Source of the DNA: a virus
Lineage: Duplodnaviria; Heunggongvirae; Uroviricota; Caudoviricetes
Length of the DNA stretch: 50,997 bases
Reading direction: 5' to 3' (one strand)
IMG/VR virus record: IMGVR_UViG_648276648_000009
Location: 1-50,997 of that record
This document shows positions 6,130-50,997 of this stretch, in pieces. The translations under genes were made by a program, and so were the position numbers. Position 1 is the first letter of the stretch, and each line of letters starts with the position of its first letter. Below the pieces are notes generated by a model that was given only the letters and a program-made list of their open reading frames with translations, did not search any database and was not told the DNA's origin.

Positions 6130-6132
6130 TCC

Positions 6133-8905: not shown

Positions 8906-12050
<3,145 letters not shown>

Positions 12051-34132: not shown

Positions 34133-34139
34133 GTGTCAT

Positions 34140-34300
34140 GCCATCGCACAGCCATACGTAGCGTTTAGCTCAGAGATCAATGGTAGTGCTGGCTGGGCTG
34201 CCGAAAGGCAGGCCGGTTCCCTTTTGCGCCGGTAGTCTCAACCCAGTCAGTGCTACCGCCATTGAGATTGAGACCTCACGCGGTAGCTCCTTAAATTAGC
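34140..34300 (+). ncRNA. Structured leader of immI-like module 1; candidate c4-type antisense RNA region
   Basis: Complementary segments CAATGGTAGTGCTGGCTGGG and CCCAGTCAGTGCTACCGCCATTG plus nested hairpins upstream of the icd-like RBS; exact RNA ends not determinable. Confidence 0.35.
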
Positions 34301-34317
34301 AAAAGGAGGCTGCCATT

Positions 34318-34539
34318 GTGGCTACTATCCCTACCCCTGCTCATCCTGAATTTATCTGGCGCTTTTACTCCTGCCAAAAACGTCACTATCACTTCGTTAT
34401 TGCACCGACAGAAGATGAGGCACGTTCTCAGCTTCCTGACGCCCCATGTATTTTCTCTGCCCGTTTTTCCACTGATTCACGCAATTCTCTCAGTTACTGG
34501 TGCCTCCCTGTTAACGCTTCTGCTCAGGAGGGACTATGA
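34318..34539 (+). CDS. icd: Icd-like 73-aa protein, copy 1
   Basis: GTG start after AAAAGGAGG; overlaps the antirepressor start (ATGA); substitutions between the two copies are almost all synonymous in this frame. Confidence 0.65.
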   Translation: MATIPTPAHPEFIWRFYSCQKRHYHFVIAPTEDEARSQLPDAPCIFSARFSTDSRNSLSYWCLPVNASAQEGL

Positions 34540-35648
34540 GAACATCGTTAGTTACCCGTGAAGAGATGATCGAGGCAATTGAACAGCACACTGCCTGTAT
34601 CAGTACCAGGGATATACCTGGCGTTATTGCCAACTACTTCATGATCACCAAACAACTTTACCGGAGAAAGGACAAACACGCAGTTCACCGCATTCTGCTA
34701 ACCGATATCCGTGAATACCTGCTCGAACAGGGTCATCTAAATTACGCAACCGTCGCAGCCGAAGCACGCAAGGAGGCACACAGAATGAAAGCAACTAACG
34801 TTAAATCAGAAAAAATTTATGCACCTTCAGTTCAGGAATCGGAACTGGTGGTTGTTCAGAATCAGCCGGATGAAATTCCCGTTCTGGAATGGCAGGGAGT
34901 ACGTGTCGTGACAACCGAAACTCTTGCTAGAGGGTATGGGGTCGATGAAGCCAATATTCGCAACAATTTGTCTCGCAACCTTGACCGCTTTGAAGAAGGT
35001 AAGCATTACTTTCTTCTAACTGGTTTAAAATTAAGAGAATTTAAGAACAGAGTAACCGGAAGTTACTCTGTTGGTAAGAACGCCAGAAGCCTTACACTCT
35101 GGACAGAGCGCGGCGCTGCACGCATGTCTAAGATCGTGGACACAAATGAAGCATGGGCATTCTTTGAAAAACTGGAAGACAGCTACTTCCGGCAAAAAGA
35201 ACAGCAACCGGTTGCAATCCCCCAAACATTACCAGAAGCCCTACGCCTGGCTGCCGAACTGGCTGAACAAAAGCAGCTTCTGGAACAGAAAGCCCACCAG
35301 CTAAATCAGCAGCTGGTGGCCGCCGCTCCTAAGGTCGATTTTGCCGACCGGGTATCAGTAGCTAAAGGGATCCTGATTGGGAATTTTGCAAAGGTTGTTG
35401 GACTTAAGCAAAATGCGCTGTTTGCCTGGTTACGGGAGAACGGCATCCTGATAGCGTCCGGTGGACGTAAAAATGTGCCGTTCCAGCAGTACATCAACGC
35501 GGGGTATTTCACGGTGAAAGAAGTGGTGCTGGATGATGAAGATGGCTACCAGATACGGTTGACGCCTCAATTAACGGGTAAAGGCCAGCAGTGGTTGACG
35601 CGTAAACTGCTCGATGCTGGCTTGTTAAAACCGGTGGCGGCTGAATAA
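34536..35648 (+). CDS. ant: Phage antirepressor (AntA-like N-terminal domain, ANT/KilAC C-terminal domain), copy 1
   Basis: 370 aa; translationally coupled to the icd-like ORF. Confidence 0.85.
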   Translation: MRTSLVTREEMIEAIEQHTACISTRDIPGVIANYFMITKQLYRRKDKHAVHRILLTDIREYLLEQGHLNYATVAAEARKEAHRMKATNVKSEKIYAPSVQESELVVVQNQPDEIPVLEWQGVRVVTTETLARGYGVDEANIRNNLSRNLDRFEEGKHYFLLTGLKLREFKNRVTGSYSVGKNARSLTLWTERGAARMSKIVDTNEAWAFFEKLEDSYFRQKEQQPVAIPQTLPEALRLAAELAEQKQLLEQKAHQLNQQLVAAAPKVDFADRVSVAKGILIGNFAKVVGLKQNALFAWLRENGILIASGGRKNVPFQQYINAGYFTVKEVVLDDEDGYQIRLTPQLTGKGQQWLTRKLLDAGLLKPVAAE

Positions 35649-37233: not shown

Positions 37234-37267
37234 ATAACTTCGTATAGCATACATTATACGAAGTTAT
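37234..37267 (+). other. loxP recombination site (ATAACTTCGTATA-GCATACAT-TATACGAAGTTAT)
   Basis: Exact 34-bp loxP: two 13-bp inverted repeats around an 8-bp spacer. Confidence 0.98.
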
Positions 37268-37338
37268 CTTAAGGGTTATTGAACATGATCAATTTACCTG
37301 TAAATCCATACAGTTCAATACCTTACAGGTCAAATAGT

Positions 37339-37358
37339 GATCACTTGATCATTTGATC
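37339..37358. promoter_or_regulatory. Cluster of three GATC (Dam) sites in TGATCA-like hexamers (GTGATCAC TTGATCAT TTGATCAA) in the cre upstream region
   Basis: Read directly; flanked by inverted repeats. Confidence 0.5.
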
Positions 37359-37455
37359 AAGGTTGCGCTACGTAAAATCTGCGAAATGTTGGCAGTGTTA
37401 GTGCTCCAGATTTCGCGTAGCGCACTTAGCACCACCAATCAATCAGAGGTGAAAA

Positions 37456-37677
37456 ATGGGATATTCAGCTGCTAAAGTGTCCACTCATATTGAGCTTGAG
37501 AAAAACCGTGGTTACTGGCGGGCAAAAGGGTTTGATCGTGATAGTTGTCAACTGTCATTATCGCGCGGTGAAGAGAAAATAGAACGCACGCGCGGTCGCT
37601 GGCGTTTCTATGACGAGAACCATAAACAGGTAAAGGCAGAGCCGATCCTGTACACTTTACTTAAAACCATTATCTGA
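37456..37677 (+). CDS. Hypothetical 73-aa basic protein upstream of cre
   Basis: ORF preceded by GAGGTG SD; ends 8 nt before the cre ATG. Confidence 0.45.
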   Translation: MGYSAAKVSTHIELEKNRGYWRAKGFDRDSCQLSLSRGEEKIERTRGRWRFYDENHKQVKAEPILYTLLKTII

Positions 37678-37684
37678 GTGTTAA

Positions 37685-38716
37685 ATGTCCAATTTACTGA
37701 CCGTACACCAAAATTTGCCTGCATTACCGGTCGATGCAACGAGTGATGAGGTTCGCAAGAACCTGATGGACATGTTCAGGGATCGCCAGGCGTTTTCTGA
37801 GCATACCTGGAAAATGCTTCTGTCCGTTTGCCGGTCGTGGGCGGCATGGTGCAAGTTGAATAACCGGAAGTGGTTTCCCGCAGAACCTGAAGATGTTCGC
37901 GATTATCTTCTATATCTTCAGGCGCGTGGTCTGGCAGTGAAAACTATCCAGCAACATTTGGGCCAGCTAAATATGCTTCATCGTCGGTCCGGTCTGCCAC
38001 GACCAAGTGACAGCAATGCTGTTTCACTGGTCATGCGACGGATCCGAAAAGAAAACGTTGATGCCGGTGAACGTGCAAAACAGGCACTGGCGTTCGAACG
38101 CACTGATTTCGACCAGGTTCGTTCACTCATGGAAAATAGCGATCGCTGCCAGGATATACGTAATCTGGCATTTCTGGGGATTGCTTATAACACCCTGTTA
38201 CGTATAGCCGAAATTTCCAGGATCAGGGTTAAAGATATCTCACGTACTGACGGTGGGAGAATGTTAATCCATATTGGCAGAACGAAAACGCTGGTTAGCA
38301 CCGCTGGTGTAGAGAAGGCACTTAGCCTGGGGGTAACTAAACTGGTTGAGCGATGGATTTCTGTCTCTGGTGTAGCTGATGATCCGAATAACTACCTGTT
38401 TTGCCGCGTCAGAAAAAATGGTGTTGCCGCGCCATCATCCACCAGCCAGCTATCAACTCGCGCCCTGGAAGGGATTTTTGAAGCAACTCACCGATTGATT
38501 TACGGGGCAAAAGATGACTCTGGTCAGCGATACCAGGCCTGGTCTGGACATAGTGCCCGTGTCGGTGCCGCGCGAGATATGGCCCGCGCCGGAGTTTCTA
38601 TACCGGAGATCATGCAAGCTGGTGGCTGGACCAACGTAAATATTGTCATGAACTACATTCGTAACCTGGATAGTGAAACGGGGGCAATGGTGCGCCTGCT
38701 GGAAGATGGCGATTAG
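37685..38716 (+). CDS. cre: Cre site-specific tyrosine recombinase
   Basis: 343 aa, MSNLLTVHQNLPALPVDATSDEVRKNLMDMFRDRQAFSEHTWKMLLSVCRSWAAWCKLNN... Confidence 0.98.
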   Translation: MSNLLTVHQNLPALPVDATSDEVRKNLMDMFRDRQAFSEHTWKMLLSVCRSWAAWCKLNNRKWFPAEPEDVRDYLLYLQARGLAVKTIQQHLGQLNMLHRRSGLPRPSDSNAVSLVMRRIRKENVDAGERAKQALAFERTDFDQVRSLMENSDRCQDIRNLAFLGIAYNTLLRIAEISRIRVKDISRTDGGRMLIHIGRTKTLVSTAGVEKALSLGVTKLVERWISVSGVADDPNNYLFCRVRKNGVAAPSSTSQLSTRALEGIFEATHRLIYGAKDDSGQRYQAWSGHSARVGAARDMARAGVSIPEIMQAGGWTNVNIVMNYIRNLDSETGAMVRLLEDGD

Positions 38717-38733
38717 CCGTTCATTTGCGCTTG

Positions 38734-38750
38734 ATTGCTCTAATTATTTG
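38734..38750 (+). promoter_or_regulatory. C1 operator (ATTGCTCTAATTATTTG)
   Basis: 14/17 match, upstream of the cra-like ORF. Confidence 0.55.
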
Positions 38751-38766
38751 ATATTTATGGTGACAC

Positions 38767-39078
38767 ATGCGGAAGGATTTCAAAATAGACGGAAAATATG
38801 TGGTGCTGTCTGTAAGCTCTCAAATTCAGTCACCATCTGTCATTGTCACCGTAAAGTTGAGCGATAGGATGCCTGATATCGACTCGATATCTGTTGCGTT
38901 CCCCGTTAAAAGCATGCGGAGTGCTGAACATTTTGTGATGAATGCAACGGAGGAGGAAGCGCGGCGCGGGCTTACTAGAGTGATGGGGGAATTTGGCGAA
39001 CTCCTGGGTAAGGTAAACAATGCTCTTTCAATCAGTTCAGCAAGGTCCAAAGCGTTAACAGCTTCCATGATGAAATAA
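38767..39078 (+). CDS. cra: Cre-associated small protein (P1 Cra-like)
   Basis: 103-aa ORF immediately downstream of cre. Confidence 0.6.
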   Translation: MRKDFKIDGKYVVLSVSSQIQSPSVIVTVKLSDRMPDIDSISVAFPVKSMRSAEHFVMNATEEEARRGLTRVMGEFGELLGKVNNALSISSARSKALTASMMK

Positions 39079-39210
39079 AAAAAAGCCTGGCAAGGAGCCA
39101 GGCTGCACAAAAGAGCGGGTTTGTATTCCGCATCCAATCAATCAAGAAGGAGTATAGCACACAGGTACTGAAGTGAAAAAATGTGATTCGCGATAAACAA
39201 AATATCTACC

Positions 39211-39240
39211 ATTGCTCTAATTGATTGCTATAATTTAGCC
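39211..39240 (+). promoter_or_regulatory. C1 operator (ATTGCTCTAATTGATTG) overlapping a second partial copy (ATTGCTATAATTTAGCC) with TATAAT -10 hexamer
   Basis: Read directly upstream of ref. Confidence 0.55.
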
Positions 39241-39294
39241 GCATTTTTTGTCAACTACGAAGACGTTGCCATTACTTCACTCCTTGACATCATT

Positions 39295-39320
39295 GGCGGC
39301 CATTAGGCCGCCTTTTTTTT
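39295..39320 (+). terminator. Hairpin GGCGGCC-ATTA-GGCCGCC followed by T8, 5 bp upstream of the ref ATG (terminator or attenuator-like)
   Basis: Read directly; function uncertain because it abuts a start codon. Confidence 0.4.
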
Positions 39321-39325
39321 GCCAT

Positions 39326-39886
39326 ATGAAAACAATCGAACAAAAACTTGAACAGCGCCGCGAGTGGCAGAAGGCAGCCAGAGAACGAGCGATCGCTCGG
39401 CAACGGGAAAAGTTGGCTGACCCCGCCTGGCGAGAATCGCAATATCAGAAAATGCGGGATTCTATCGACCGCCGTATCGCTAAACAGAAAGAGCGCCCAC
39501 CAGCCAGCAAAACGCGGAAAAGTGCGGTAAAAATAAAATCTCGTGGCTTGAAGGGGCGAACACCGACGGCGGAGGAACGGACCATCGCCAATGCTCTTGG
39601 CACTCTCCCCTGCATTGCCTGCTACATGCATGGAGTAATATCTGAAGAGGTGTCTCTGCACCATATCTCCGGTCGTACCGCGCCGGGTTGTCACAAAAAG
39701 CAATTGCCCCTTTGTAGATGGCACCACCAGCATGCTGCACCGGCTGAAGTAAGAGCAAAATACCCCTGGCTGGTCCCTGTTCATGCCGATGGTGTGGTTG
39801 GAGGCAAGAAAGAATTCACCTTGCTGAACAAGTCAGAGATGGAGTTACTGGCTGACGCCTATGAGATGGCAAACATCATGCACTAA
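39326..39886 (+). CDS. ref: Ref (recombination enhancement function), HNH-type endonuclease
   Basis: 186 aa starting MKTIEQKLEQRREWQKAARERAIARQRE; Cys/His HNH-like cluster. Confidence 0.9.
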   Translation: MKTIEQKLEQRREWQKAARERAIARQREKLADPAWRESQYQKMRDSIDRRIAKQKERPPASKTRKSAVKIKSRGLKGRTPTAEERTIANALGTLPCIACYMHGVISEEVSLHHISGRTAPGCHKKQLPLCRWHHQHAAPAEVRAKYPWLVPVHADGVVGGKKEFTLLNKSEMELLADAYEMANIMH

Positions 39887-40075
39887 TAAATATATTATTT
39901 TTAATGATAAATGATTGACAACTGACAAGTGACTTCAGTCAGAATCATCACATGCCCGGTACGGATGGATCCCTTTTCAAATATTCCATGGACGGCACAG
40001 TCTGAGTACCGGGCGCTACCTTCAGTTGTATTGCTAAGCCGCCGCTGGTGGCTTTTCTTTTTTGTAGGGGGCGCT

Positions 40076-40717
40076 ATGGATAAGAAAATATGCGTTGTTT
40101 CGATGAGCGTCGGCAAACCGGCGTCAATGACTGCTGCATGGATCAATAACGAGCTGATAATGGCTGAGCGGACCAGCTACCCTGAACGCCGCCGCGATAT
40201 GGAACTCCAGCTGCTGCGCGAATTGCGAGAAAAAGAGGATAAGGGTTTTATCGTGCTGGTGGAAGAGGAAAACAGCTTTATTACTGGTCGAGTTGGCCAG
40301 CGTGTAAGGTTGCGCGATCCCTTCATGAACGGCAGGCCGGTACTAATTGAGGCAATGCAGATTTACAAGGAGTTGGAACGCCAGAAAGCGATCAAGTTAC
40401 CGCGCAAAGAATCCGGCAAATACATCCTCCACCAAAGCATCTTCGATTCCGAACATGACAAAAAAGGCGATGAATTTTTCAACATCAACTGGAGCGAAAT
40501 AACGACAGAGCATGTTCTGACGTTACTATGTTGCTTTGCGACGGAATACAACAACGTTGCCAGCGCCGACTACATCAGGGCAATGGATGGAGAAGTTGAG
40601 GCACGCCAGGAACCATCGTTACTAAGCCCTCTGATTAACATAATTCGCGGCACACAGAGACTTGCGGAAAAAAGCGTTCCACATGGAATCTTAACTGGAA
40701 AGGGAAACTATTTTTAA
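40076..40717 (+). CDS. mat: Mat-like protein
   Basis: ORF downstream of ref; internal ATG 40076 preceded by GGGGG SD. Confidence 0.6.
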   Translation: MDKKICVVSMSVGKPASMTAAWINNELIMAERTSYPERRRDMELQLLRELREKEDKGFIVLVEEENSFITGRVGQRVRLRDPFMNGRPVLIEAMQIYKELERQKAIKLPRKESGKYILHQSIFDSEHDKKGDEFFNINWSEITTEHVLTLLCCFATEYNNVASADYIRAMDGEVEARQEPSLLSPLINIIRGTQRLAEKSVPHGILTGKGNYF

Positions 40718-40750
40718 CATCCCCAAATCCTTTTGGGGAACAACTCATTC

Positions 40751-41062
40751 TTACAATAGCGGCCCCATACATTGTCTCCAGGCACTCCCCTCATTACCGT
40801 TATCAAGAAACGTAGAGGTTGCATATGGAATGCCTCTGATTTGTGTTGATATGAATGGACCATCAGACGTCGAAGTTGTACGCAGTTTTGATGTAAGTAC
40901 GTATTTTCCACTGATGCCTTTCTCTGCCAGAGCTTTTGATTTTGTGATAACTAAATCTGCACATTTCTCTGCGGCTACATATTGCGGGTCTTTTTCAGCT
41001 TTTCCGGCACATGCAGTTATCGTTAAAACGATAGCTGCGGCTAACAAATTACCTAGTTTCAT
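40751..41062 (-). CDS. Small lipoprotein (signal peptide with lipobox LTITAC)
   Basis: MKLGNLLAAAIVLTITACAGK... ; sits in the position where P1 carries res-mod. Confidence 0.6.
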   Translation of the reverse strand: MKLGNLLAAAIVLTITACAGKAEKDPQYVAAEKCADLVITKSKALAEKGISGKYVLTSKLRTTSTSDGPFISTQIRGIPYATSTFLDNGNEGSAWRQCMGPLL

Positions 41063-41166
41063 CTGCATACCTTATTAAGTGCATTAAAAACAGTAGGTTG
41101 CCAAGGTTTAAAACAAATTTCAACCCCCCGTGACGCGCAACATGAGCAAAAATAACACACAATCCC

Positions 41167-41199
41167 ATTGCTCTAATAAATTTGATTTATTGGAGCAAA
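41167..41199. promoter_or_regulatory. Inverted pair of C1 operators (exact ATTGCTCTAATAAATTT at 41167-41183, then reverse-oriented ATTTATTGGAGCAAAT)
   Basis: Read directly between the lipoprotein gene and immI-like module 2. Confidence 0.65.
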
Positions 41200-41259
41200 T
41201 AACCTACCATTGCGCACTGCCCTATTGATCTTCCTGTCGTTCAGGCTTATAGTCCCACC

Positions 41260-41495
41260 GTCGTAGCAAATTCTGCGACCGGGTTTGACAGCCTGAATGT
41301 ACATGCGGACAACCGCAGATTTCCGATATTGCGGTATTTTTGTGTCCGTAAACCACGTTACGCCCGAATTATGGTGGGGCGTGATGGGGAGGCTTCGGCC
41401 TGCTGGTTTCATGTACGCCAGTCTGTCAACCCCGTCACGTCCTGCCACCTGTTTGACAGCGGGTAGCAGGTTGTTAAACCTGTACATGAGGCCGT
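41260..41495 (+). ncRNA. Structured leader of immI-like module 2 with a three-element sense/antisense/sense arrangement; candidate c4-type antisense RNA
   Basis: TTGATC-N17-TATAGT promoter at 41226-41254; GTTTGACAGCCTGAATGTACATG (41283-41305) is complementary to CATGTACGCCAGTCTGTCAAC (41406-41430), which can also pair with TTGACAGC...TGTACATGAGG overlapping the icd-like RBS. Confidence 0.4.
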
Positions 41496-41499
41496 AACT

Positions 41500-41721
41500 A
41501 TGGTTAATGCCAATCCTTGCGCACGCCCTGAATTTATCTGGCGCTTTTACTCCTGCCAGAAACGTCACTATCACTTCGTTATTGCACCGACAGAAGATGA
41601 GGCTCGCTCTCAGCTTCCGGATGCTCCCTGCATTTTCTCTGCCCGTTTTTCCACTGATTTGCGCAACTCTCTCAGTTACTGGTGTCTCCCTGTTAACGCT
41701 TCTGCTCAGGAGGGACTATGA
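41500..41721 (+). CDS. icd: Icd-like 73-aa protein, copy 2
   Basis: Identical to copy 1 except the first 9 residues and one S-to-L change; ATGA overlap with the antirepressor. Confidence 0.65.
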   Translation: MVNANPCARPEFIWRFYSCQKRHYHFVIAPTEDEARSQLPDAPCIFSARFSTDLRNSLSYWCLPVNASAQEGL

Positions 41722-42836
41722 GAACGTCATTAGTCACCCGTGAAGAGATGATCGAGGCAATTGAACAGCATACCGCCTGTATCAGTACCAAGGATATACC
41801 GGGCGTTATTGCCAACTACTTCATGATCACCAAACAACTTTACCGGAGAAAGGACAAGAACGCGGTTCACCGTATCCTGTTGTCTGATATCCGCGAATAC
41901 CTGCTCGAACAGGGTCATCTGAATTACGCAACCGTCGCAGCCGAAGCACGCAAGGAGGCACACAGAATGAAAGCAACTAACGTTAAATCAGAAAAAATTT
42001 ATGCACCTTCAGTTCAGGAATCGGAACTGGTGGTTGTTCAGAATCAGCCGGATGAAATTCCCGTTCTGGAATGGCAGGGAGTACGTGTCGTGACAACCGA
42101 AACTCTTGCTAGAGGGTATGGGACAGAAACAATCCGTATTCGCCAAAATCATCATGAGAACAAAGTACGCTTTGTTGAAGGGAAGCACTTTTTCAAAGTT
42201 GAAGGAGAATCATTGCGCGAGTTGAAGCACAGAGTAGCTTTAAACTACTCTGTAAAAATTGCTCGCAATGTTCGCTCACTCACCCTCTGGACAGAACGCG
42301 GCGCAGCCCGCCACGCTAAAATGCTCGAAACCGATCAGGCATGGGCATTCTTTGAAAAACTGGAAGACAGCTACTTCCGACAAAAAGAACAGCAACCGGT
42401 TGCAATCCCCCAGACGCTTCCAGAAGCCCTACGCCTGGCTGCCGAACTGGCTGAACAAAAGCAGCTTCTGGAACAGAAAGCCCACCAGCTAAATCAGCAG
42501 CTGGTGGCCGCCGCTCCTAAAGTCGATTTTGCCGACCGGGTATCAGTAGCTAAAGGGATCCTGATTGGGAATTTTGCAAAGGTTGTTGGACTTAAGCAAA
42601 ACGCGCTGTTTGCCTGGTTACGGGAGAACGGCATCCTGATTGCGTCCGGCGGGCGTAAAAATGTACCGCTCCAGCAATACATCAACGCCGGGTATTTCAC
42701 GGTGAAAGAAGTGGTGCTGGATGATGAAGATGGCTACCAGATACGGTTGACGCCTCAATTAACGGGTAAAGGCCAGCAGTGGTTGACGCGTAAACTGCTC
42801 GATGCTGGCTTGTTAAAACCGGTGGCAGCTGAATAA
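41718..42836 (+). CDS. ant: Phage antirepressor, copy 2 (mosaic: termini near-identical to copy 1, central ~70 aa divergent)
   Basis: 372 aa; direct comparison with 34536-35648. Confidence 0.85.
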   Translation: MRTSLVTREEMIEAIEQHTACISTKDIPGVIANYFMITKQLYRRKDKNAVHRILLSDIREYLLEQGHLNYATVAAEARKEAHRMKATNVKSEKIYAPSVQESELVVVQNQPDEIPVLEWQGVRVVTTETLARGYGTETIRIRQNHHENKVRFVEGKHFFKVEGESLRELKHRVALNYSVKIARNVRSLTLWTERGAARHAKMLETDQAWAFFEKLEDSYFRQKEQQPVAIPQTLPEALRLAAELAEQKQLLEQKAHQLNQQLVAAAPKVDFADRVSVAKGILIGNFAKVVGLKQNALFAWLRENGILIASGGRKNVPLQQYINAGYFTVKEVVLDDEDGYQIRLTPQLTGKGQQWLTRKLLDAGLLKPVAAE

Positions 42837-42967
42837 TGGAAGAATGCCCGGTTGAGATGCCGGGCATGATTAAATGTCTCTTCAGCACATTACCGAAGTT
42901 CAATCTTCAACCAAGAAGTGTACTCGCATACGATTATCGCAATAAAATACTTGAAGTTTTATAAACT

Positions 42968-43441
42968 GTGAGTATCATTGCCCATATGAAAACATCCTAT
43001 TTAACTATATTGGCTTTCCATATTCGCGATTTTCGCGAGAAGTATGGTGTTACTCAATCAGACATTGCATCTGGCCTTGGGATAACAAGTGCCGGTTGGG
43101 GAAAAATTGAAAATGGTAAGTCCTCTCTCTCTGTAGAGAATATGATGAAATTCTGTAAAATTATTAATATTGATGCAACCATACTTCTTGATATTTCCAC
43201 GAAATCGGCAAAAAACTTAATCAAATGTGGATGGAGTGTATCTTATTCTCCTGTTGAGGATGATAATTTAATAGACGGAAAAAATATATTTGCTAAAACA
43301 CATGGAATGAATAACGTCATGAGGAAATTTATAGACGGGAAACTTGGAAGTGTTTTAGACAAAGAATTTGATGACATTATTATGAAATATGCAACATTTT
43401 ATATGGTTGTAGCTAAAAATCTAAGAGATGACTTGATTTAA
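42968..43441 (+). CDS. XRE-family helix-turn-helix regulator with C-terminal extension
   Basis: HTH LTILAFHIRDFREKYGVTQSDIASGLGITSAGWGKIENGKSSLSVENMMKFCKIINI; AT-rich codon usage. Confidence 0.65.
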   Translation: MSIIAHMKTSYLTILAFHIRDFREKYGVTQSDIASGLGITSAGWGKIENGKSSLSVENMMKFCKIINIDATILLDISTKSAKNLIKCGWSVSYSPVEDDNLIDGKNIFAKTHGMNNVMRKFIDGKLGSVLDKEFDDIIMKYATFYMVVAKNLRDDLI

Positions 43442-43456
43442 AAATGGAGTGTACAT

Positions 43457-44209
43457 ATGGCATACAGACAAGACAGCGATCTTGAATTCCTAGCTAAATG
43501 TAGCGACCGTGATCTTGATGATTTAGTTAACCTATTGATTTATGATAACGATGGCAAAAAAAGATGGACTGAAGAGTTATCTAACAATCGACAATATAAG
43601 GAATTTGTACCAAGACATAGCGTATATTGGAGAGAAATTGCTGCTGAAATTCAATGTTATGGTGGAAATACCATAGCAACTCTCTTGCGTGGTGGTAAAG
43701 GGGTCTGCTACAGAGAAATTCTCATTGATGTATGCAATAAGCTAAAGGTTAATTTCAATGCCAAGAGCCGAATAGAGGTTATTGAACAAAATCTTCTATT
43801 AAAAATTCTCAGCGACTCTCTAGATAACATGTCATCCGAAGATATAAAAGTTTTTGCCATGGAACTTGGATTGGATGAAGTTACAAGATTTACTCCTGAG
43901 GCAGTTCTATCTGCCTTCCAATATATTTTCAGGGCCGGCGGTTTCAGATCTTATCAGGTAACTCTTAAATTTGCGAATCTTTTACTAAAAATTTTAATTG
44001 GACGCGGTTTGACACTCGCAGGTAATCAAATACTCGTAAAAGCATTATCTATTTTAACAGGCCCAATTGGTTGGACTATAACAGCCGCATGGACCATTGT
44101 AGATGTGGGAGGAACTGCTTATCGAGTAACAATTCCTGCTGTTATTCAAGTTGCTGTACTAAGGGCGAAAGTCAATAATAATATTAAAGACAGCGATATT
44201 ACCTTGTGA
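43457..44209 (+). CDS. YaaW/DUF3944-like protein with C-terminal glycine-rich hydrophobic segment
   Basis: 250 aa; YDNDGK...CYGGNTIATLLRGG...YREILIDVCNKL and C-terminal VDVGGTAYRVTIPAVIQVAVL resemble YaaW (UPF0174) as recalled; GGAGTG SD. Confidence 0.6.
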   Translation: MAYRQDSDLEFLAKCSDRDLDDLVNLLIYDNDGKKRWTEELSNNRQYKEFVPRHSVYWREIAAEIQCYGGNTIATLLRGGKGVCYREILIDVCNKLKVNFNAKSRIEVIEQNLLLKILSDSLDNMSSEDIKVFAMELGLDEVTRFTPEAVLSAFQYIFRAGGFRSYQVTLKFANLLLKILIGRGLTLAGNQILVKALSILTGPIGWTITAAWTIVDVGGTAYRVTIPAVIQVAVLRAKVNNNIKDSDITL

Positions 44210-44284
44210 TATTATAACTCCATCCATCAAGGAAGAGGTGCTAATCCTCTTCCTGTAATTCTATGATTCCTAAATGTTAATGAG

Positions 44285-44533
44285 TCAATCAGCATTCAGG
44301 AGCAATGCATTATCTATGATGATTTGCTCCCATTCTTCGAATGCCCGATCGCGGACACCCTGGGGAACACTGTTAGTTTTGAAATCGACGACCGTACGCC
44401 ATTTCCCGTCCGGACGGTACATGCGCAGAGCTTTACTTCCCCCTTCCCTGCGCACTTCAACGTTATGCTTATCAGCAAACTCTTGTAATGCTCGTAGCGT
44501 CCCATGCTTTACTGTGTAGTATCGCTTTTTCAA
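44285..44533 (-). CDS. lxc: Small protein, 82 aa, Lxc/Bof-like by size and position
   Basis: ORF downstream of the DarB-like gene on the same strand; assignment by synteny and size only. Confidence 0.5.
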   Translation of the reverse strand: MKKRYYTVKHGTLRALQEFADKHNVEVRREGGSKALRMYRPDGKWRTVVDFKTNSVPQGVRDRAFEEWEQIIIDNALLLNAD

Positions 44534-44970
44534 GTTTTCTCTCCAGCCTGTGCCAAGGCTTCAACTTCCAAATCGTAAGACTCAAACTCATAGTCCTGGT
44601 CGTCAACTTCTTCAGGCACTGGCAGTAAATGCCAGGCTGAGTATATCTGACCATTATCAAAACGCTCCTGGCTGTAGAGCGTCGCGGCTATGAGTGTTAG
44701 CGCCGGGCGGTCATAACGGTAAATTTTGCGAACGTCACGGTCAACGAGACGACCGAAATTACCATAACCGCGCTCCAGTAATAATTTTTTAATTTCCGGC
44801 CAGTATGGACCATAGCTGCGGTACAGGCGGGGATTTTTCAGTAATCGCCCGCGTAGCCCTGACAGGAAGAAATCAACGTATTCGTCTTCTGTCTTTCCTA
44901 ACAACGCTGTACGGAGTACCGCCTCAAGATATGTTTTATTCGGTTTTATTGTATCAGATAGTGTGGCCAT
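44530..44970 (-). CDS. Hypothetical protein, 146 aa (Ulx-like by position)
   Basis: ORF between the DarB-like and Lxc-like genes; 4-nt overlap with the downstream gene. Confidence 0.5.
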   Translation of the reverse strand: MATLSDTIKPNKTYLEAVLRTALLGKTEDEYVDFFLSGLRGRLLKNPRLYRSYGPYWPEIKKLLLERGYGNFGRLVDRDVRKIYRYDRPALTLIAATLYSQERFDNGQIYSAWHLLPVPEEVDDQDYEFESYDLEVEALAQAGEKT

Positions 44971-45003
44971 ATTATGCGACGCCCGGCGAACCGGGCGCTC
45001 CTG

Positions 45004-48000
45004 TTATGCGTATTGTTGGATGACGGCCAGAACGTCCGCCACGTTGTGTTTTGTCTCGATAATCCACCAGTTACCTGGGAAGTCGCTGTTCTTCGCCTTC
45101 GCTGGCAGCCAGCGAGCGCCGAATTTCGCCTTGATTGCGTCTTTCGCACGGAAAAGAACGCCTTTCATGCCTGAGGCTTCCTGAAGCCCAAATACCTCGC
45201 CAGCGGCGAATTTTGGTGCGTACATCATCTTCAGGTCGGCGGTGGATACGCGATAATTCAGACCAAGAGACTGAGCTATGCTGGTGGCATCACCCTGTAT
45301 TGATGATAACTCTTCTTGTTTCTCGTTTCTGGCGGCAATTTCTTCCTCCGTGATGTTGCCAAGGGCCAGGTTTATCCGATCAGCGTCGGCCTGTTTCTCT
45401 TCATCGGTGCGCCCGGCAAGAACCGTGTTAATTCTCTGCAATATCTCCACATGATTCTTGCGCATGCTGAGCAATTCCGGCGTAACCTCGTTAAGATCCA
45501 CCAGCCCAAGGATGGCAAGGTCGGAAAACATTGATACTAGGTTGTAGGTCATGCGATAGCTGAGTTGGCCATAGGCTGATGGCAACTGCACCGCATCCAT
45601 TTGATAGGCATCCATAAATTTAGAGCCGTCGTTTACGACATCCGCAATTGCAGGTGTGATTTTCCCTGTGGTGGCGGCCTCCCTGATTGCTGTTACCCAT
45701 GATTGAGTCAGTGCGGCGACTGCATGATTCAGATTGGCTTCCCGTTCTGCTGCGATGCGCGCGCTTGCTGAGTCCATTGCCTGCTTGATCTCGGCTTTAT
45801 TGCTGTAAATGCCGATGGTGCCAAACTGTGCTGTGGTGATCTCATAATCTGACGCCCGGAACTCATGGGTACCGAAAATGGCATTGGTGACCTCAAGTTC
45901 AGAATCCCCGTTACGAGTAGCCCCCTGGCTTGTTTTCTCCGGCATTTTTGCGATCGCATCCGCTATTTTCTCCTGAATTGCTTCAGGGGATAGCGTATCT
46001 CCGTATGACGCGATTACATCGCCATAATTGGAGCCAAACAATTCAACCAGGAATGTTTCTGCCGAACGGATCTGGCGGTTATTCCCTTCCGACATCATAC
46101 CAAGCACCCATTTTGCAATTGACGACTTCAGCGCGCCGTCACGGCGATCCGGGTAAACCGCATGCTTCAGTGGGGCCGTATAGGAACCAACAAAATCAAT
46201 GCTATAGCCTGACTCTGTAGTCTGAACGCCGTATGAGTCAGTGATTTTGATCATGCCGCGCTGCTGGAAACGGTAGAAATCGTCACAGGAAATGATGTCG
46301 TTAATCCCGGCGATGGAGACGCCACCACTGATTTTCTGCATAACAGCATCTTCATCGGGAGTTACATCAACCTGTTTATCCAGCGTCTTCACATCCCAGT
46401 TACCCGATTTGGTGCCTTTGAAGGTAAAGATGATCTCCACGTCTGCGCGCTGGCTGTCGAAGTCCAGCGACTTAATGCGAACGATATCACCGGCACAATC
46501 ATAGTATTGGCCTACACGCCATGAGCGATCGCCGATAACAAGGAACTCATTCGCATGGTTAACCAGATCAGGATCAACATCCAGAATGCCTTTATTTATT
46601 GCATCCTCCACCAGCGGGCGCAGGCGTTTGATATCCGTCGCGGCCTTCTGAGTACGGTTCAATAATTTCTCATAGCGGGAGATGGCCTGAGAGATATTAG
46701 CCTTGCGCTGAATGGCGCTTTTCAACGACGCGCGATACTGTGCTAACAACATACGGTCTGTGTGATGGACGCTACCCCAGCGGGCTTTCCAGTCTGCGTT
46801 ATCAGCTGCTTTGGCCATTACCGCCTGTTTGAATTTGGCGACGTCGGCGGTGGTCTTTTCAAGTTCCGCTTTGCTTCGCTCCAATTCAGCGGTAAGTACC
46901 TCCACATCCTCACCAGCTGCGTGCTGCGCCTTGATGTAGTTCTGAAGGTCGATAGTAGCCTGTTCTTTCTGGCGAGCGCGTTTCGCAGCTTTCGCCTTAT
47001 CCATTTGAACCTGCATCATTACCAGACGTTCGCCGTCATCCTTCGCGGTATACATCTGCATTTCGATCATGTCATTGGCGTCGGCGTTCTCCATTTCTGA
47101 CTTATCTGAACGGAGGATATCGGAGATCCAGCCTGCTTTACGCTTCAGCGTCTTCAGTCGGTATTCATCGAAAGACCCCTTGCCGCAGTAGTAGTGAACG
47201 CGAACGCTTGCACGGTTGGAGCCAACTCGTGCACCGCGACCGTTACGTTGTGCGATACTGGCTGGTGTCCACGGCAACGTCAGGTGGTGGATATCCGTCG
47301 TTCCTCGATGCAGGTTGATACCCACCTCTGCCTTTTTGTTGCAGATGATGATCGGAGTCCGGCCCTCCTGGAAGTCGGCTGCAATCTTTTCCAGACCGCC
47401 CAACGACATTTCATTTTGCTGCGCGATATAGGCGTCATACAGAGCCATTTGCTCGTTGTATTTCGCTATCTGTGCATCTGTTGGTTCATCCGGTAGCTCT
47501 TTCGGCGGTTTAACCGCTTTCAGTTTCTTACCGGTTTTACCTGCCTCGGCAACCGTCTGAGCATTCAGGATCCCCACCTTTGAAGGTTCAAGGTCTAGAG
47601 CATTGCAGATAATGCGCTTGAGCTTCTGGTGCTGCGTTTTTTCATCGGTGAAGATGACTTGCTTACCTTCCGGGAAAAACTCCTTCAGCGTGGCGATCAG
47701 CTTCGCGTATTTCGGCGTAACGGGGTGAGTTACGGTCAGTTCGTCAATGCCAAACCTGGCCAGGCGCTTATTCACTTCCTGCTCGAACGCTTCCGGAACC
47801 TGCAACTGAATAAACTCGCCCTTATCTATCAGGGAGTATTGCGATTGCTGCGTGATTGAATCATCACTGTCGTCGTCTTCGCTGGTGGCTTGTTTAGGCA
47901 AACTGTCCGCCAGCTGCTGCACCGCATCGGCGTACTCCGGCAGGAAACGATAGGTGATCCGGCGATAGTACAGGTCCATGTCAGTACATACGCGGTCCAT

Positions 48001-50496
48001 ATCCCTGATTATTGAGAAGATCGGACGGGCTTTCTCGTGCTCAATCACGCCGTCTTCATTGACCGAGGTCGTTACGCCATTGTTGGCTTTGGCCGCCGCT
48101 TCCGCCTGCTGACGCAATTCTTCATACGCCGCCAGTTGTTCTTCAGTAAGTGGTGCATCCTGCTGGTGTTCGTCCAGCTCCGGGATCTCCACGGTATCCT
48201 TAACGTCTTCCGCCGTTTTAAGCGTTACCCAGCGATGGAATATACCGCGCAGCGCATCAAGGTTTTCAAAGCCCACCAGCGCCATTTTTTCTTCAACTTC
48301 ACCGCTGATTTTCTGTACCGTTTCCAGCCTGGTCTTGCCGAAGAATTTAACGAAGTCATCAGGACCGTAGATCCCCATCTTCTGCCAGTATTCCTTCGGC
48401 AGCACATGAGAAAGCATGTTGTATGCATCGATCGGGGTGTTAACGACTGGCGTTGCAGTCAGGAGAACCGGTCCGCGCCCACCATTCTTTTTCATCAGGT
48501 ACGCGTTTTTAATTGCCATATCCCGCGCCGATTGCGCCACCGCGCTGGTGGGCAGATAGGCCAGTTGTGACGCTTCGCGACCATTTTTATAGCTATTGCG
48601 GTAGTTGTGACCTTCGTCAGCGATCACACTATCGAAGCCCATATCCTCAAAGTACGGATACTTCTCTGCTTTTTCGGTGCCGGTATCTGAATACTCCGAC
48701 AATACCCGGCGACGCGCGGCCTCTTTGCGGTGGGAGTCGGAGTCCATTGCGCTGGCTACGCGTCCGGCGGCAACGAAGTCATAAAGCATATCCTGTGCAT
48801 GCTCATCTACGGTGTCATCACGTAGCGGAATGCGGGCGTATTGTTCTTTGGTAAACACGACTGCACGGTAATTTGAGTGCGGGATCGCGTTCATCCGCGC
48901 CGTGATAGTGGCTTCATCTGCCAGCTTAAGAGCATCGCGCATAACTGGAGTGCCATCAGTACCAAGAACAGGTTTACCGTTCTCATCGAGCACCGGCACC
49001 TGGCGAATCTGATCGCCATCCATCAGCACATCAAGACCGACGAACAGGTAGTTACTGAATGCCTCTTCACTCAGGAATTCTTTTGCTTCGTAATACCAGT
49101 TTTCCAGCACTGATTTAGGCACTACATACGCAGTACGGGTGGAGCGACCGTTCTCATAGTTGAACGCCTCAAGCGCCAGCGCGGTCGTGGTTTTACCCAG
49201 CCCGGTGCCGAAGCCCAGGATGCCGCGCCCATCTTCGGACAGTCGGCGCACCTCGCTATTCTGGTAATCAAATGGCTGGCGCTTACCGCTTAATCCCTTC
49301 AACCCAAGCGGATCGCCAGAGTGTTCATACGGGATATTGCTATTGAACACATCGTTGTATTTGGCAACCAGTTCATCGTAGCGATCGTGCGTCTTGATCC
49401 ACTTATTGAACTGGTCCTCAAGCAGTGCCATCTGCTCGCGGTAGCCGTTCGCCGTCGCGCTATCTTTGCCACCGATACGCGCACCATTGAGATACTTTTC
49501 CAGCTGTGCCGGGAACCCGGTCGCGTTTTCACCTGATTTACGGTCCCACTCGTAGCGGATCTCGCCTGTTTCTTTATCCTTGCGCTGGACGACACCGTAT
49601 CGGTGCCCGACGAACAGACCATCACCACCGTGATAGGTGTCAGAAACCATTTCGTCGCCTTCCAGCTGCACTGACTGCACATAGCGAAGATCTGGATAGC
49701 CGTTTTCCTGCAAAAATTCCAGAATGACGGAACGGTCGAACCAACGGCTATTGAGCTTAAAGCGGATATTCTCTGCTGGCGTCTTGATGCGCTTCTCTTC
49801 GATCGCTGCCAGCTGATTAAGGACGTTGTTCTTTACTGGACCGTCGGGGAGTGTGGCAAGGAATTCCTGTTTTGGTGCCACTATCTCGTTAATGTCGCCG
49901 CTGGTGGCGCGGGCGAACGGAACAATCCCGCCATACGGTGAAACCGCAATGCCAGGGGTGCTGGCCAATAAATTAAGCAACTCGTCATCACTGGCTGGCA
50001 GTTCGCCGGTAAACGCAAGGCGGAAATCATCGAGCTGGATTGGATCGCGAGTGAGATCACTGTAGAGATAACGCAGGGTGTCCTGATAGCTGGTGGAGTC
50101 ATAACTGGCGCTGGAATCATGCGTAACCAGTTTTCCTGTCAGCTCGTCAGAAATAGTGCCATCCAGCTTAATTGCACCACGGAAAGCAAACCAGGCGCGC
50201 GCACCGCTCCCCGATAATTTCGCTATCGGACCGCGACCGGGGTTACCAAAACGGTCAATCTCTGCCTGCAAACGGGATACCAGAGAAAGGCGCTGCTGTT
50301 CGATTTGTTCAGCACTATGCCCGGCGGCCTTCATGTCCTGATATTCAATTAACATCCGGCCAATCATCGCCCCGCGATACAAGCGTTCACGGTATTTTTC
50401 AGGCTGGCTGTTAATCCAGTCCACCAGCTGCACCATATCGTCGCTGATTGATGTGGTGTACTTATCGCGGACATTTGCCATCTGGGTAAATGTCAT
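45004..50496 (-). CDS. darB: Large DExH/SNF2-type helicase-domain protein (DarB-like defence-against-restriction protein), possibly 5'-truncated by IS26
   Basis: 1830 aa; helicase motifs GFGTGLGKTTTALA, VIADEGHNYRN, QRNGRGARVG; no methyltransferase motif; frame open from the first Met up to the IS26 boundary. Confidence 0.7.
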   Translation of the reverse strand: MTFTQMANVRDKYTTSISDDMVQLVDWINSQPEKYRERLYRGAMIGRMLIEYQDMKAAGHSAEQIEQQRLSLVSRLQAEIDRFGNPGRGPIAKLSGSGARAWFAFRGAIKLDGTISDELTGKLVTHDSSASYDSTSYQDTLRYLYSDLTRDPIQLDDFRLAFTGELPASDDELLNLLASTPGIAVSPYGGIVPFARATSGDINEIVAPKQEFLATLPDGPVKNNVLNQLAAIEEKRIKTPAENIRFKLNSRWFDRSVILEFLQENGYPDLRYVQSVQLEGDEMVSDTYHGGDGLFVGHRYGVVQRKDKETGEIRYEWDRKSGENATGFPAQLEKYLNGARIGGKDSATANGYREQMALLEDQFNKWIKTHDRYDELVAKYNDVFNSNIPYEHSGDPLGLKGLSGKRQPFDYQNSEVRRLSEDGRGILGFGTGLGKTTTALALEAFNYENGRSTRTAYVVPKSVLENWYYEAKEFLSEEAFSNYLFVGLDVLMDGDQIRQVPVLDENGKPVLGTDGTPVMRDALKLADEATITARMNAIPHSNYRAVVFTKEQYARIPLRDDTVDEHAQDMLYDFVAAGRVASAMDSDSHRKEAARRRVLSEYSDTGTEKAEKYPYFEDMGFDSVIADEGHNYRNSYKNGREASQLAYLPTSAVAQSARDMAIKNAYLMKKNGGRGPVLLTATPVVNTPIDAYNMLSHVLPKEYWQKMGIYGPDDFVKFFGKTRLETVQKISGEVEEKMALVGFENLDALRGIFHRWVTLKTAEDVKDTVEIPELDEHQQDAPLTEEQLAAYEELRQQAEAAAKANNGVTTSVNEDGVIEHEKARPIFSIIRDMDRVCTDMDLYYRRITYRFLPEYADAVQQLADSLPKQATSEDDDSDDSITQQSQYSLIDKGEFIQLQVPEAFEQEVNKRLARFGIDELTVTHPVTPKYAKLIATLKEFFPEGKQVIFTDEKTQHQKLKRIICNALDLEPSKVGILNAQTVAEAGKTGKKLKAVKPPKELPDEPTDAQIAKYNEQMALYDAYIAQQNEMSLGGLEKIAADFQEGRTPIIICNKKAEVGINLHRGTTDIHHLTLPWTPASIAQRNGRGARVGSNRASVRVHYYCGKGSFDEYRLKTLKRKAGWISDILRSDKSEMENADANDMIEMQMYTAKDDGERLVMMQVQMDKAKAAKRARQKEQATIDLQNYIKAQHAAGEDVEVLTAELERSKAELEKTTADVAKFKQAVMAKAADNADWKARWGSVHHTDRMLLAQYRASLKSAIQRKANISQAISRYEKLLNRTQKAATDIKRLRPLVEDAINKGILDVDPDLVNHANEFLVIGDRSWRVGQYYDCAGDIVRIKSLDFDSQRADVEIIFTFKGTKSGNWDVKTLDKQVDVTPDEDAVMQKISGGVSIAGINDIISCDDFYRFQQRGMIKITDSYGVQTTESGYSIDFVGSYTAPLKHAVYPDRRDGALKSSIAKWVLGMMSEGNNRQIRSAETFLVELFGSNYGDVIASYGDTLSPEAIQEKIADAIAKMPEKTSQGATRNGDSELEVTNAIFGTHEFRASDYEITTAQFGTIGIYSNKAEIKQAMDSASARIAAEREANLNHAVAALTQSWVTAIREAATTGKITPAIADVVNDGSKFMDAYQMDAVQLPSAYGQLSYRMTYNLVSMFSDLAILGLVDLNEVTPELLSMRKNHVEILQRINTVLAGRTDEEKQADADRINLALGNITEEEIAARNEKQEELSSIQGDATSIAQSLGLNYRVSTADLKMMYAPKFAAGEVFGLQEASGMKGVLFRAKDAIKAKFGARWLPAKAKNSDFPGNWWIIETKHNVADVLAVIQQYA

Positions 50497-50535
50497 GCCG
50501 AGACGGCCTTCTGTTGTAGTCAGGTTACGCTGAAG

Positions 50536-50997
50536 GGCACTGTTGCAAAGTTAGCGATGAGGCAGCCTTTTGTCTTATTCAAAGGCCTTACATTTCAAAA
50601 ACTCTGCTTACCAGGCGCATTTCGCCCAGGGGATCACCATAATAAAATGCTGAGGCCTGGCCTTTGCGTAGTGCACGCATCACCTCAATACCTTTGATGG
50701 TGGCGTAAGCCGTCTTCATGGATTTAAATCCCAGCGTGGCGTTGATTATCCGTTTCAGTTTGCCATGATCGCATTCAATCACGTTGTTCCGGTACTTAAT
50801 CTGTCGGTGTTCAACGTCAGACGGGCACCGGCCTTCGCGTTTGAGCAGAGCAAGCGCGCGACCATAGGCGGGCGCTTTATCCGTGTTGATGAATCGTGGG
50901 ATCTGCCACTTCTTCACGTTGTTGAGGATTTTACCCAGAAACCGGTATGCAGCTTTGCTGTTACGACGGGAGGAGAGATAAAAATCGACAGTGCGGC
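50536..50997 (-). mobile_element. IS26 (IS6 family), partial; terminal inverted repeat GGCACTGTTGCAAA at 50536-50549, element continues beyond window end
   Basis: Characteristic 14-bp IR and Tnp26 C-terminal sequence. Confidence 0.9.
50588..50997 (-). CDS. tnpA: IS26 transposase Tnp26, C-terminal part (N-terminus off-window)
   Basis: ...NVKKWQIPRFINTDKAPAYGRALALLKREGRCPSDVEHRQIKYRNNVIECDHGKLKRI...RLVSRVFEM matches IS26 transposase as recalled. Confidence 0.92.
   Translation of the reverse strand, partial: RTVDFYLSSRRNSKAAYRFLGKILNNVKKWQIPRFINTDKAPAYGRALALLKREGRCPSDVEHRQIKYRNNVIECDHGKLKRIINATLGFKSMKTAYATIKGIEVMRALRKGQASAFYYGDPLGEMRLVSRVFEM

Follow-up and report, generated by a model that had tools for sequence, protein, structure and literature searches.

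What fills the interval between the genes mat and lxc in P1-like phage-plasmids that lack the type III restriction-modification (R-M) genes res and mod, and how did this content get there? The question is raised by the IMG/VR virus record IMGVR_UViG_648276648_000009, whose 50,997 nucleotides (hereafter, the window) are part of a P1-like phage-plasmid in which the order around the interval (hereafter, the slot) is cre (37685-38716), c8, ref, mat, cargo, lxc, ulx, and darB. A sequence-only reading of this DNA had proposed that positions 40718-44284 form a variable cargo hot spot at the place where P1 carries res, mod, and IS1, and that they hold instead a leftward lipoprotein gene, a second immI-like module, and an XRE/YaaW-like cassette, whose genes would be candidates for host-range or defence functions. 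Our analysis makes it highly probable that the mat-lxc interval is indeed a cargo-exchange site of P1-like phage-plasmids, occupied here by an immI-like and an XRE-jukA insertion.

The boundaries of the slot were set by BLASTN, with positions 1-20000 of P1 (NC_005856) as the query against the window. Two blocks of homology flank the slot, the left one (37251-40718) matching P1 1-3469 with 95.8% identity and the right one (44287-50538) matching P1 9752-16003 with 98.1% identity. The stretch between them without P1 homology (40719-44286) is 3.57 kb long, its P1 counterpart being 6.3 kb, with its breakpoints at the stop codons of mat (40718) and lxc (44287), two convergent genes. The slot thus sits at the res-mod position of P1 with other cargo inside, the coordinates proposed earlier were right to within two bases, and all the contents listed are present. 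The mention of IS1 as part of the P1 slot was wrong: in the P1 reference this slot contains res and a mod gene split by the insertion sequence (IS) IS5 (mod749::IS5 strain), and IS1 lies elsewhere (isaA-IS1-isaB, 21.5-24.2 kb). The presence of a res-mod pair in the interval would have contradicted the whole idea, and none was found by TBLASTN (E<=0.01) with P1 Res (970 amino acids, aa) and with Mod rebuilt by removal of IS5 (653 aa). Indeed, neither protein gave a match at this threshold anywhere in the 51-kb window, nor did any remnant, and the same queries recovered full-length copies in 8 related loci. The pair of Res and Mod open reading frames (ORFs) that characterizes an EcoP1I-type type III R-M system is therefore absent from the window.

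The comparison of the same interval in relatives is what argues for a hot spot. We collected 80 IMG/VR loci encoding Mat, with 10-kb flanks, and measured the interval in the 72 that also contain lxc. These 72 intervals fall into 10 states that share no DNA similarity with one another and range from 29-39 bp to about 5.09 kb; since the loci were not dereplicated, the class counts that follow are not frequencies. The empty state (29-39 bp, 10 loci) consists of a GCCCGG...CCGGGC terminator hairpin only. The other states carry a GNAT acetyltransferase (872-915 bp, 10 loci), a PIN_12 protein (1044-1054 bp, 5 loci), a DUF2971 protein of the PADLOC family PDC-S31 (1196 bp, 3 loci), a RelA_SpoT/PDC-S33 protein of the CapRel-SJ46 type (1266-1271 bp, 11 loci), a SIR2_2/PDC-S25 protein (1402-1415 bp, 15 loci), YaaC with a deoxyribosyltransferase-like gene (1698 bp, 4 loci), EAL with AraC (1738-1768 bp, 3 loci), the cargo type of the window (3560-3567 bp, 3 loci besides the window itself), and res-mod with at least two specificities (5082-5092 bp, 8 loci).

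Five of the cargo states, in addition to R-M, match defence families, so that the site combines what is expected of a hot spot, that is, a fixed position between conserved genes and mutually exclusive, unrelated cargos, many of them defensive. In phage SJ46 the mat-lxc interval carries a gene annotated as 'RelA/SpoT family protein'; this is CapRel-SJ46, whose action against phages has been established by experiment (Zhang et al. 2022, PMC9712102). The claim of a variable cargo hot spot is borne out by this synteny comparison, with its 10 unrelated states. As for the functions suggested, defence finds support in CapRel-SJ46, SIR2, PIN, DUF2971, R-M, and the JukA homologue of the window, and we found none for a role in host range via adsorption. 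The slot can be read as an island of defence and competition, with CapRel-SJ46 in one relative and a JukA-type gene directed against jumbo phages in the window; because it hosts these two, the GNAT, YaaC-pair, DUF2971, and PIN cargos are reasonable candidates for new defence genes.

The features of the slot, together with its flanks and the other immI-like module of the window, are collected in Table 1.

Table 1. Coordinates of the features of the mat-lxc slot, its flanking genes, and the pacB/c1 module (positions in the window)
Feature	Position	Strand	Remarks
mat (maturation control), left flank	39965-40717	+	250 aa; annotated Mat in P1 and relatives; P1 homology ends at 40718
Hairpin CCCCAAATCCTTTTGGGG	40722-40739		Read from sequence; between the convergent mat and lipoprotein genes
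Orphan lipoprotein gene	40751-41068	-	105 aa; RefSeq start 2 codons later gives 103 aa
immI-like module c4-icd-ant	41167-42836	+	Complete; all parts intact
C1 repressor operator (Oc4/Op51 equivalent) ATTGCTCTAATAAATTT	41167-41183	+	0 mismatches to consensus; aligns with annotated Oc4 of P1 and P7
Promoter-like TTGATC-17-TATAGT	41225-41253	+	Aligns with P1c4 (P51b) of P1; consensus match only
a1/b1, upstream c4 targets	41247-41305	+	a1 41285-41291 TTGACAG; b1 41299-41305 GTACATG
c4 antisense RNA	41367-41452	+	Rfam RF01695, full model, 70.7 bits (gathering score 45); aligned to annotated c4 of P1 and P7
a2/b2, downstream c4 targets	a2 41453-41459; b2 41482-41489 GTACATGA	+	Exact complements of a' and b'
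icd (cell-division inhibitor)	41500-41721	+	73 aa; NCBIfam phage_ICD_like 2.6e-13; full-length alignment with Icd of P1 and P7
ant1 (anti-repressor)	41718-42836	+	372 aa; 4-nucleotide overlap with icd; Pfam ORF6N and ANT/KilAC; phrog_63 anti-repressor 1e-131
Hairpin GCCCGGTTGAGATGCCGGGC	42847-42866		Empty-site terminator remnant; marks the right end of the lipoprotein+immI insertion
XRE-jukA cassette	42867-44286	+	Guanine-plus-cytosine (GC) content about 33-39%
Promoter-like site of the cassette	42951-42978		
XRE helix-turn-helix (HTH) regulator	42986-43441	+	151 aa
jukA/YaaW (DUF3944)	43457-44209	+	250 aa; 15 bp from the XRE gene
Terminator-like hairpin of the cassette	44231-44253		
lxc (modulator of C1), right flank	44285-44533	-	Annotated lxc in P1; 98.1% P1 identity from 44287 on
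ulx	44530-44970		Beyond lxc, followed by darB
immI-like module between pacB and c1	33962-35648		Also contains icd and a 370-aa Ant
Operator-like site of the pacB/c1 module	33962-33978		3 mismatches
isrK of the pacB/c1 module	34053-34131		
C4 of the pacB/c1 module	34176-34263		

The immI-like module of the slot is the second copy in the window, the two being about 90% identical. The window has 14 sites resembling the C1 operator, that of this module among them, where chance would give 0.22. Downstream of it, the Rfam model RF03163 (c4-a1b1) matches at 41247-41299 with 57.9 bits (gathering score 46.7), and a1 and b1 are exact complements of the loops of the module's own c4 RNA. The equivalent of the mature 77-nucleotide c4 lies at about 41373-41449 and carries the recognition loops b' CATGTAC (41410-41416) and a' CTGTCAA (41423-41429); in the predicted fold (-45.1 kcal/mol, z = -5.9) b' occupies a hairpin loop and a' is single-stranded. 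These loops have exact complements of 7-8 nucleotides at all four target sites, and b2 overlaps the Shine-Dalgarno sequence of icd. The internal start of ant2 is also kept (AAGGAGG followed by ATG at 41967), and the encoded Ant1 is 59.6% identical to that of P1, with the N-terminal part and the KilAC C-terminus kept and the middle replaced by ORF6N. The attributes by which immI of P1 and P7 is recognized, namely the C1 operator, the c4 structure, the complementarity of loops and targets, the icd-ant1 overlap, and the ant2 start, are thus all found here; its location is not the canonical one, from sim to kilA-repL, which corresponds to P1 48.1-49.7 kb and lies outside the window.

If the module works as its counterparts do, a C1-repressible promoter would transcribe the c4 RNA, icd, and ant1/ant2, and the a' and b' loops of c4 would pair with a1/b1 and a2/b2, the b2 target covering the ribosome-binding site of icd. 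Since b2 covers this site, c4 would, by analogy with P1 and P7, shut off the translation of icd and ant; in P1, the translation of icd is coupled to that of ant. By the same analogy, c4 would be processed by RNase P, and Ant1 and Ant2 would bind C1 and inactivate it.

A comparison of c4 recognition elements suggests that the module is also a carrier of specificity. The a' loop of the slot c4 is of the P1 type, and its b' loop (CATGTAC) is new with respect to CACTAAC in P1 and CACAATC in P7; in the alignment of P1, P7, and the two window copies, both b1 and b2 of the slot carry the changes that match the new b'. Scanning P1, P7, the window, and the 80 loci, we found 34 c4-icd modules with 11 combinations of b' and a', and in all 34 the a1/b1 and a2/b2 targets are exactly complementary to the module's own loops. 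The variants comprise five b' and two a' elements on the P1 scaffold, and two of each on the isrK-linked one. We then aligned one representative of each of the seven P1-scaffold codes (mean column identity 94%, with the variation concentrated in the recognition elements). The loops pair with a2/b2 in 105 of 105 cells and with a1/b1 in 98 of 98; in each comparison eight pairs have changed on both sides and none on one side. When the partner was slid by 1-3 columns as a control, 27-47% of the cells paired and no compensatory pair appeared. Such covariation would be the behaviour of a working, diversifying antisense recognition system. The classical heteroimmunity of P1 and P7 consists of two codes (PMC12197685), which the present code set extends. 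Because its b' differs from those of P1 and P7 and both targets compensate for the change, the slot module should, judging from these pairings, be orthogonal to the other immI modules of the element.

Accessory modules occur at three sites near mat, that is, between pacB and c1 (on the isrK-linked scaffold, with Rfam isrK and C4 matches), between ref and mat (inverted), and between mat and lxc; in locus L041 a further one follows mat at a distance of about 6.5 kb. Of the 80 loci, 38 have one or more accessory modules within 10 kb of mat. At the pacB/c1 site, where P1 has only 24 bp and many related loci carry variants, the window module uses a different scaffold with a code of its own, so that the window holds two codes, CCTTTTGC/GTCTCAA (pacB/c1) and CATGTAC/CTGTCAA (slot). 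The plasmid of strain CH4797, which is 99.5% identical, adds to these two a P7-type code at the canonical site, making three modules. Every element in which two or more modules were scanned (the window, L041, L045, L056, L091, and CH4797) has differing codes. Loci L044-L046 share the cargo architecture of the window and have another slot code (CGTAAGT/CTGCTAA); therefore, modules or their recognition segments are exchanged independently of the remaining cargo.

An inverted c4-icd(-ant) module was observed just upstream of mat in L014, L017, L030, L037, L041, L042, L045, and L056-L058 (at about 9512-9777 or equivalent), and also in phage vB_EcoM-Ro157c2YLVW (113-674). Over the c4 region these ref/mat modules are 95-98% identical to the slot copy of the window, and, taken with the other sites described above, they indicate that immI modules move between intergenic sites. 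The ref-mat interval is itself a further variable site, as L089, L095, and L097 harbor a DUF4145 gene there (about 1615-2469).

What might such stacking be for? It is possible, and we advance the idea tentatively, with a confidence slightly short of even, that P1-like phage-plasmids run a combinatorial, lock-and-key immunity based on antisense RNA, with at least 11 orthogonal two-element c4 codes, up to three of them stacked, in what would be an arms race coded in RNA. In a lysogen, the stacked codes would make the prophage immune to more immI types; during infection, a module would bring in an anti-repressor that a resident prophage without the matching c4 could not silence. A description of stacked or orthogonal immI modules was not found in the openly searchable literature, a search that did not extend to subscription journals. 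The stacked orthogonal c4 code is the only part of this analysis of real interest, and it is a property of P1-like elements broadly rather than of the slot. Compensated c4 diversification, together with stacking, provides a testable model for the evolution of heteroimmunity by RNA pairing, and the c4 codes represent a set of naturally orthogonal antisense regulators.

The same data can be read in two other ways. An accessory immI might mainly tune the lysis-lysogeny decision or the induction of the phage itself, through the dosage of Ant and Icd, instead of acting in the competition with relatives. In favor of this is that the slot module has a perfect C1 operator, as does the native immI, and that Ant acts on C1 in P1, according to its annotation; dosage, however, predicts neither the diversification of c4 codes nor the occurrence of differing codes within one element, and we consider this explanation unlikely. 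It is quite improbable, in our opinion, that the slot c4-icd-ant arose as a by-product when P1-like relatives recombined and is a redundant or decaying copy without a role of its own. The 90% identity of the two copies would fit a duplicate, and recombination between copies does occur: in a contig of GCA_001364295.1 (L096, 1-7100) pacB is followed by a pacB-type c4, ant, XRE, jukA, and lxc, and c1, cre, ref, mat, and the lipoprotein gene are missing, an arrangement that looks like a deletion by recombination between two ant copies, which would remove the C1 repressor and Cre. A decaying duplicate, however, would hardly keep its operator, promoter-like site, c4 fold, icd, ant1, and ant2 start all intact, nor would it be expected to concentrate variation in the recognition elements and always to compensate for it at three separate sites. 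Copies in the same element always differing in code are likewise unexpected for drift.

Going back to the interval as a site of cargo exchange, a remaining question concerns the way in which the cargo moves. Two well-conserved convergent genes flanking a terminator would allow relatives residing in one cell to exchange the intervening DNA by homologous recombination on either side; in the element of the window, the type III restriction genes are absent and two nested insertions fill the site. The comparison of the left junctions revealed no sequence common to different cargo classes, a search for direct or inverted repeats flanking the slot turned up nothing beyond short matches attributable to chance, and the ORF and family scan of positions 40718-44284 revealed no transposase or integrase ORF. 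Because shared junctions, flanking repeats, and such enzymes are all missing, exchange probably occurs by homologous recombination in the conserved flanks. It seems very doubtful that a dedicated mobile-element mechanism (a transposon, an integron-like cassette, or site-specific recombination) delivers the cargo, even if many cargos end beside the conserved GCCCGG...CCGGGC hairpin next to lxc, in principle a conceivable site of recombination, and IS elements are frequent in P1-like plasmids. Indeed, the terminal repeats, target duplications, and recombinase gene of a transposon or integron cassette were not found, neither in the slot nor as a common left junction of the cargo classes, and the XRE-jukA cassette lies on the opposite side of the hairpin from the other cargos. 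Transposon-like slot ends were also considered as a candidate and rejected, given the chance nature of the repeat matches and the unrelated junctions.

The nested structure of the cargo is revealed by plasmid p95JB1A, which has the lipoprotein+immI insertion only, ant being followed by the empty-site hairpin and a tail that abuts lxc; the homology of the window to this plasmid ends at 42866 and resumes at 44287. The remaining part of the slot and the flanks have a GC content of about 41-52%. Because of its low GC content and its nested junction with respect to p95JB1A, the XRE-jukA cassette is a second insertion, acquired separately.

The protein encoded by the second gene of the cassette matches the PADLOC JukA profile (1.2e-65, positions 4-241 of 245) and possesses the domains expected for a JukA sensor, PF13099 (DUF3944, 4.5e-14) and PF03981 (Cbp3-like, 3.3e-8). 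It is 73% identical, without gaps, to WP_121372120 of Escherichia marmotae (Jo6), the two XRE proteins being 66% identical, and WP_000331517, the protein annotated in the CH4797 slot and identical to the JukA of the window, is included in the JukA list of the authors of the Juk system. In their preprint (Li et al. 2022, 10.1101/2022.09.17.508391) YaaW was renamed JukA, a sensor against phiKZ-like, nucleus-forming jumbo phages, and XRE regulators were found beside jukA; the Jo6 Escherichia XRE-jukA operon gave Pseudomonas aeruginosa PAO1 protection from phiKZ-like phages, an effect for which JukA was sufficient by itself. By homology, JukA would sense proteins ejected by nucleus-forming jumbo phages and arrest the infection early, and the XRE protein would regulate the jukA operon. 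JukB was not seen, the sole neighbour in the cassette being the 151-aa XRE protein with PADLOC HTH/control-protein matches, in scans that did not include a named JukB model. On these comparisons, the system of the window is predicted to be a single-gene, XRE-paired Juk variant.

That XRE and JukA are instead a toxin-antitoxin pair stabilizing the plasmid is most improbable and was set aside, since, for all that the genes are closely paired, with 15 bp between them, that XRE has weak sub-threshold matches to the HTH antitoxin families HipB, HigA, and MqsA, and that P1-like plasmids carry addiction modules (e.g., phd-doc), those matches are far below curated cut-offs, JukA resembles a Cbp3-like chaperone and no known toxin, and deletion of XRE in the tested Escherichia operon left immunity intact, JukA alone being enough (10.1101/2022.09.17.508391).

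The Jo6 operon was considered as a possible occupant of the mat-lxc slot; it sits instead between portal and head genes on a 94-kb E. marmotae phage-plasmid. There (L100, E. marmotae pRHBSTW-00605_3, 2838-6226) XRE-jukA shares its small island with genes for TnpB and a HicA toxin. Because of this portal/head location, the same type of cassette fills different hot spots in different phage-plasmids. The finding places a validated single-gene Juk variant, in the sense that a 73%-identical homologue was tested, on widespread Escherichia coli phage-plasmids, and its spread hints at a pressure of nucleus-forming jumbo phages on enterobacteria.

Several points speak against reading the slot as an exchange site filled with working immunity and defence cargo, in addition to the redundancy of the loci sampled. 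The mechanism of c4 is carried over from P1 and P7, and the slot code departs from that of P1 in the b element only, the a element being of the P1 type, so that the heteroimmunity conferred by b alone may be less than full. Moreover, the target of the slot Ant could differ from C1, given its ORF6N middle domain. As for the exchange by homologous recombination, we infer it from the junctions, and the protection attributed to JukA comes from a protein 73% identical to that of the window, in a heterologous host and against Pseudomonas phages.

At the left end of the cargo, the hairpin between mat and the lipoprotein gene is likely, from its sequence, a bidirectional terminator. The lipoprotein gene is transcribed divergently from the c4 promoter, at the position of sim in P1 immI. 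Its product has a signal-peptide-like N-terminus, in which LTITAC was taken as the lipobox by eye, without a lipoprotein predictor, and is predicted to be periplasmic or located in the outer membrane. The sole family match is a full-length one to phrog_16031 (function unknown), there being no Pfam, NCBIfam, or PADLOC match. An exhaustive HMMER search outlined a small family of about 80-130 aa with two invariant Cys residues and the motif IPY..ST.LDNG.PGSAWR.CM, and close homologues come from E. coli-labelled or unnamed records only. The AlphaFold2 model (predicted local distance difference test, pLDDT, 84) gave no fold match. BLASTP against SimA, SimB, and SimC revealed no similarity (best E-value 3.3), and the likeness is one of position and divergent orientation only; it is this position alone that prompts the guess of a role in superinfection exclusion. 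A 133-aa ORF (41173-41574, minus strand), antisense to c4 and icd, was discarded as spurious, having no family match and being unannotated in the RefSeq relative.

Neither the hot spot nor this cargo is new. Venturini et al. 2019 (PMC6906374) counted 'RD-1, P1 3,469-9,749 res-mod(IS5)' among five common regions of difference and described plasmid pSvP1 with the same cargo of seven ORFs at RD-1; pSvP1 (MN510446) matches the whole slot of the window at 96.8%. Among 5,426 complete E. coli genomes, 7 have plasmids with this arrangement; strain CH4797 gives the best match (99.5%), and the UMNF18 plasmid shares the slot. The exact JukA protein of the window is indexed in 598 blocks of an assembly collection; it adjoins lxc in all 10 places listed, and the mat-lxc interval is intact in 9 of these 10. 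Thus, the hot spot with this cargo was already published in 2019 and is common in E. coli assemblies, and finding it here is ordinary.

Other features were observed in the window and in its relatives. A complete type I R-M system (19758-25817, minus strand), with HsdR of 1058 aa (EcoR124 type), HsdS of 422 aa, and HsdM of 518 aa, sits in another variable region of P1, between pap and phd-doc; the element lacks the type III system of P1 and has one of type I at another place, and the same is reported of pSvP1 (PMC6906374). P1 homology in darB ends at 50538 (P1 16003), and beyond this point an ORF (50588-50917, minus strand) encodes the C-terminal portion of an IS26/IS240-family transposase; an IS insertion thus appears to have cut darB down to 1830 of its 2255 codons. 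At the left end, an Rfam IS1222 ribosomal frameshift element (1-60, minus strand), incomplete because the window begins within it, marks an IS3-family element, and three transfer RNA (tRNA) genes (Rfam tRNA; 4352-4502 and 6133-6205) are apparently the P1-type phage tRNA cluster. In the CH4797 plasmid (L001, 721-3482), the closest complete relative, an IS21-family element (istA/istB, ISSso4 family) separates ref from a shortened mat of 172 aa, with a partial pseudogene in front; the element seems to have inserted near the 5' end of mat, a gene that is intact in the window.

The system of the window can finally be compared with those already described. Plasmid pSvP1 has the same interval and, elsewhere on the plasmid, type I R-M, as in the window; in the passages searched, the paper, which predates Juk, makes no mention of a c4 RNA or c4 code in this cargo and does not call the YaaW gene JukA (PMC6906374). 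The Juk operon of Jo6 shares with the cassette the order XRE-jukA, the DUF3944 and Cbp3-like domains, and a residence on phage-plasmids of about 94-100 kb, and it differs in its locus, between portal and head genes of a different phage-plasmid; unlike the Juk system, the window cassette shows no JukB effector in the scans made. CapRel-SJ46 (PMC9712102) occupies the identical mat-lxc slot in phage SJ46, and its class is found in the slot of 11 among the 72 loci. This alternative cargo, which the window does not have, encodes a fused toxSAS toxin-antitoxin, unrelated to the window cargo both as a protein and in its mechanism. The immI regions of P1 and P7 resemble the slot module in the operator, the promoter position, a1/b1, the c4 fold, a2/b2 over the icd ribosome-binding site, icd, ant1/ant2, and KilAC; they lie between sim and kilA instead of between mat and lxc, and the slot module departs from them in its new b' with compensating targets, in the ORF6N middle of Ant, and in the unrelated lipoprotein gene that takes the place of simABC. 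For the slot as a whole, a parallel is offered by the defence hot spots of phage P2 and satellite P4, which Rousset et al. reportedly described in 2022 (cited in PMC10879196) and which are said to be likewise fixed sites between conserved phage genes with mutually exclusive, mostly defensive cargos; these belong to another phage family with other flanks, and the P1 slot additionally holds immI modules and non-defence genes such as GNAT and EAL+AraC.

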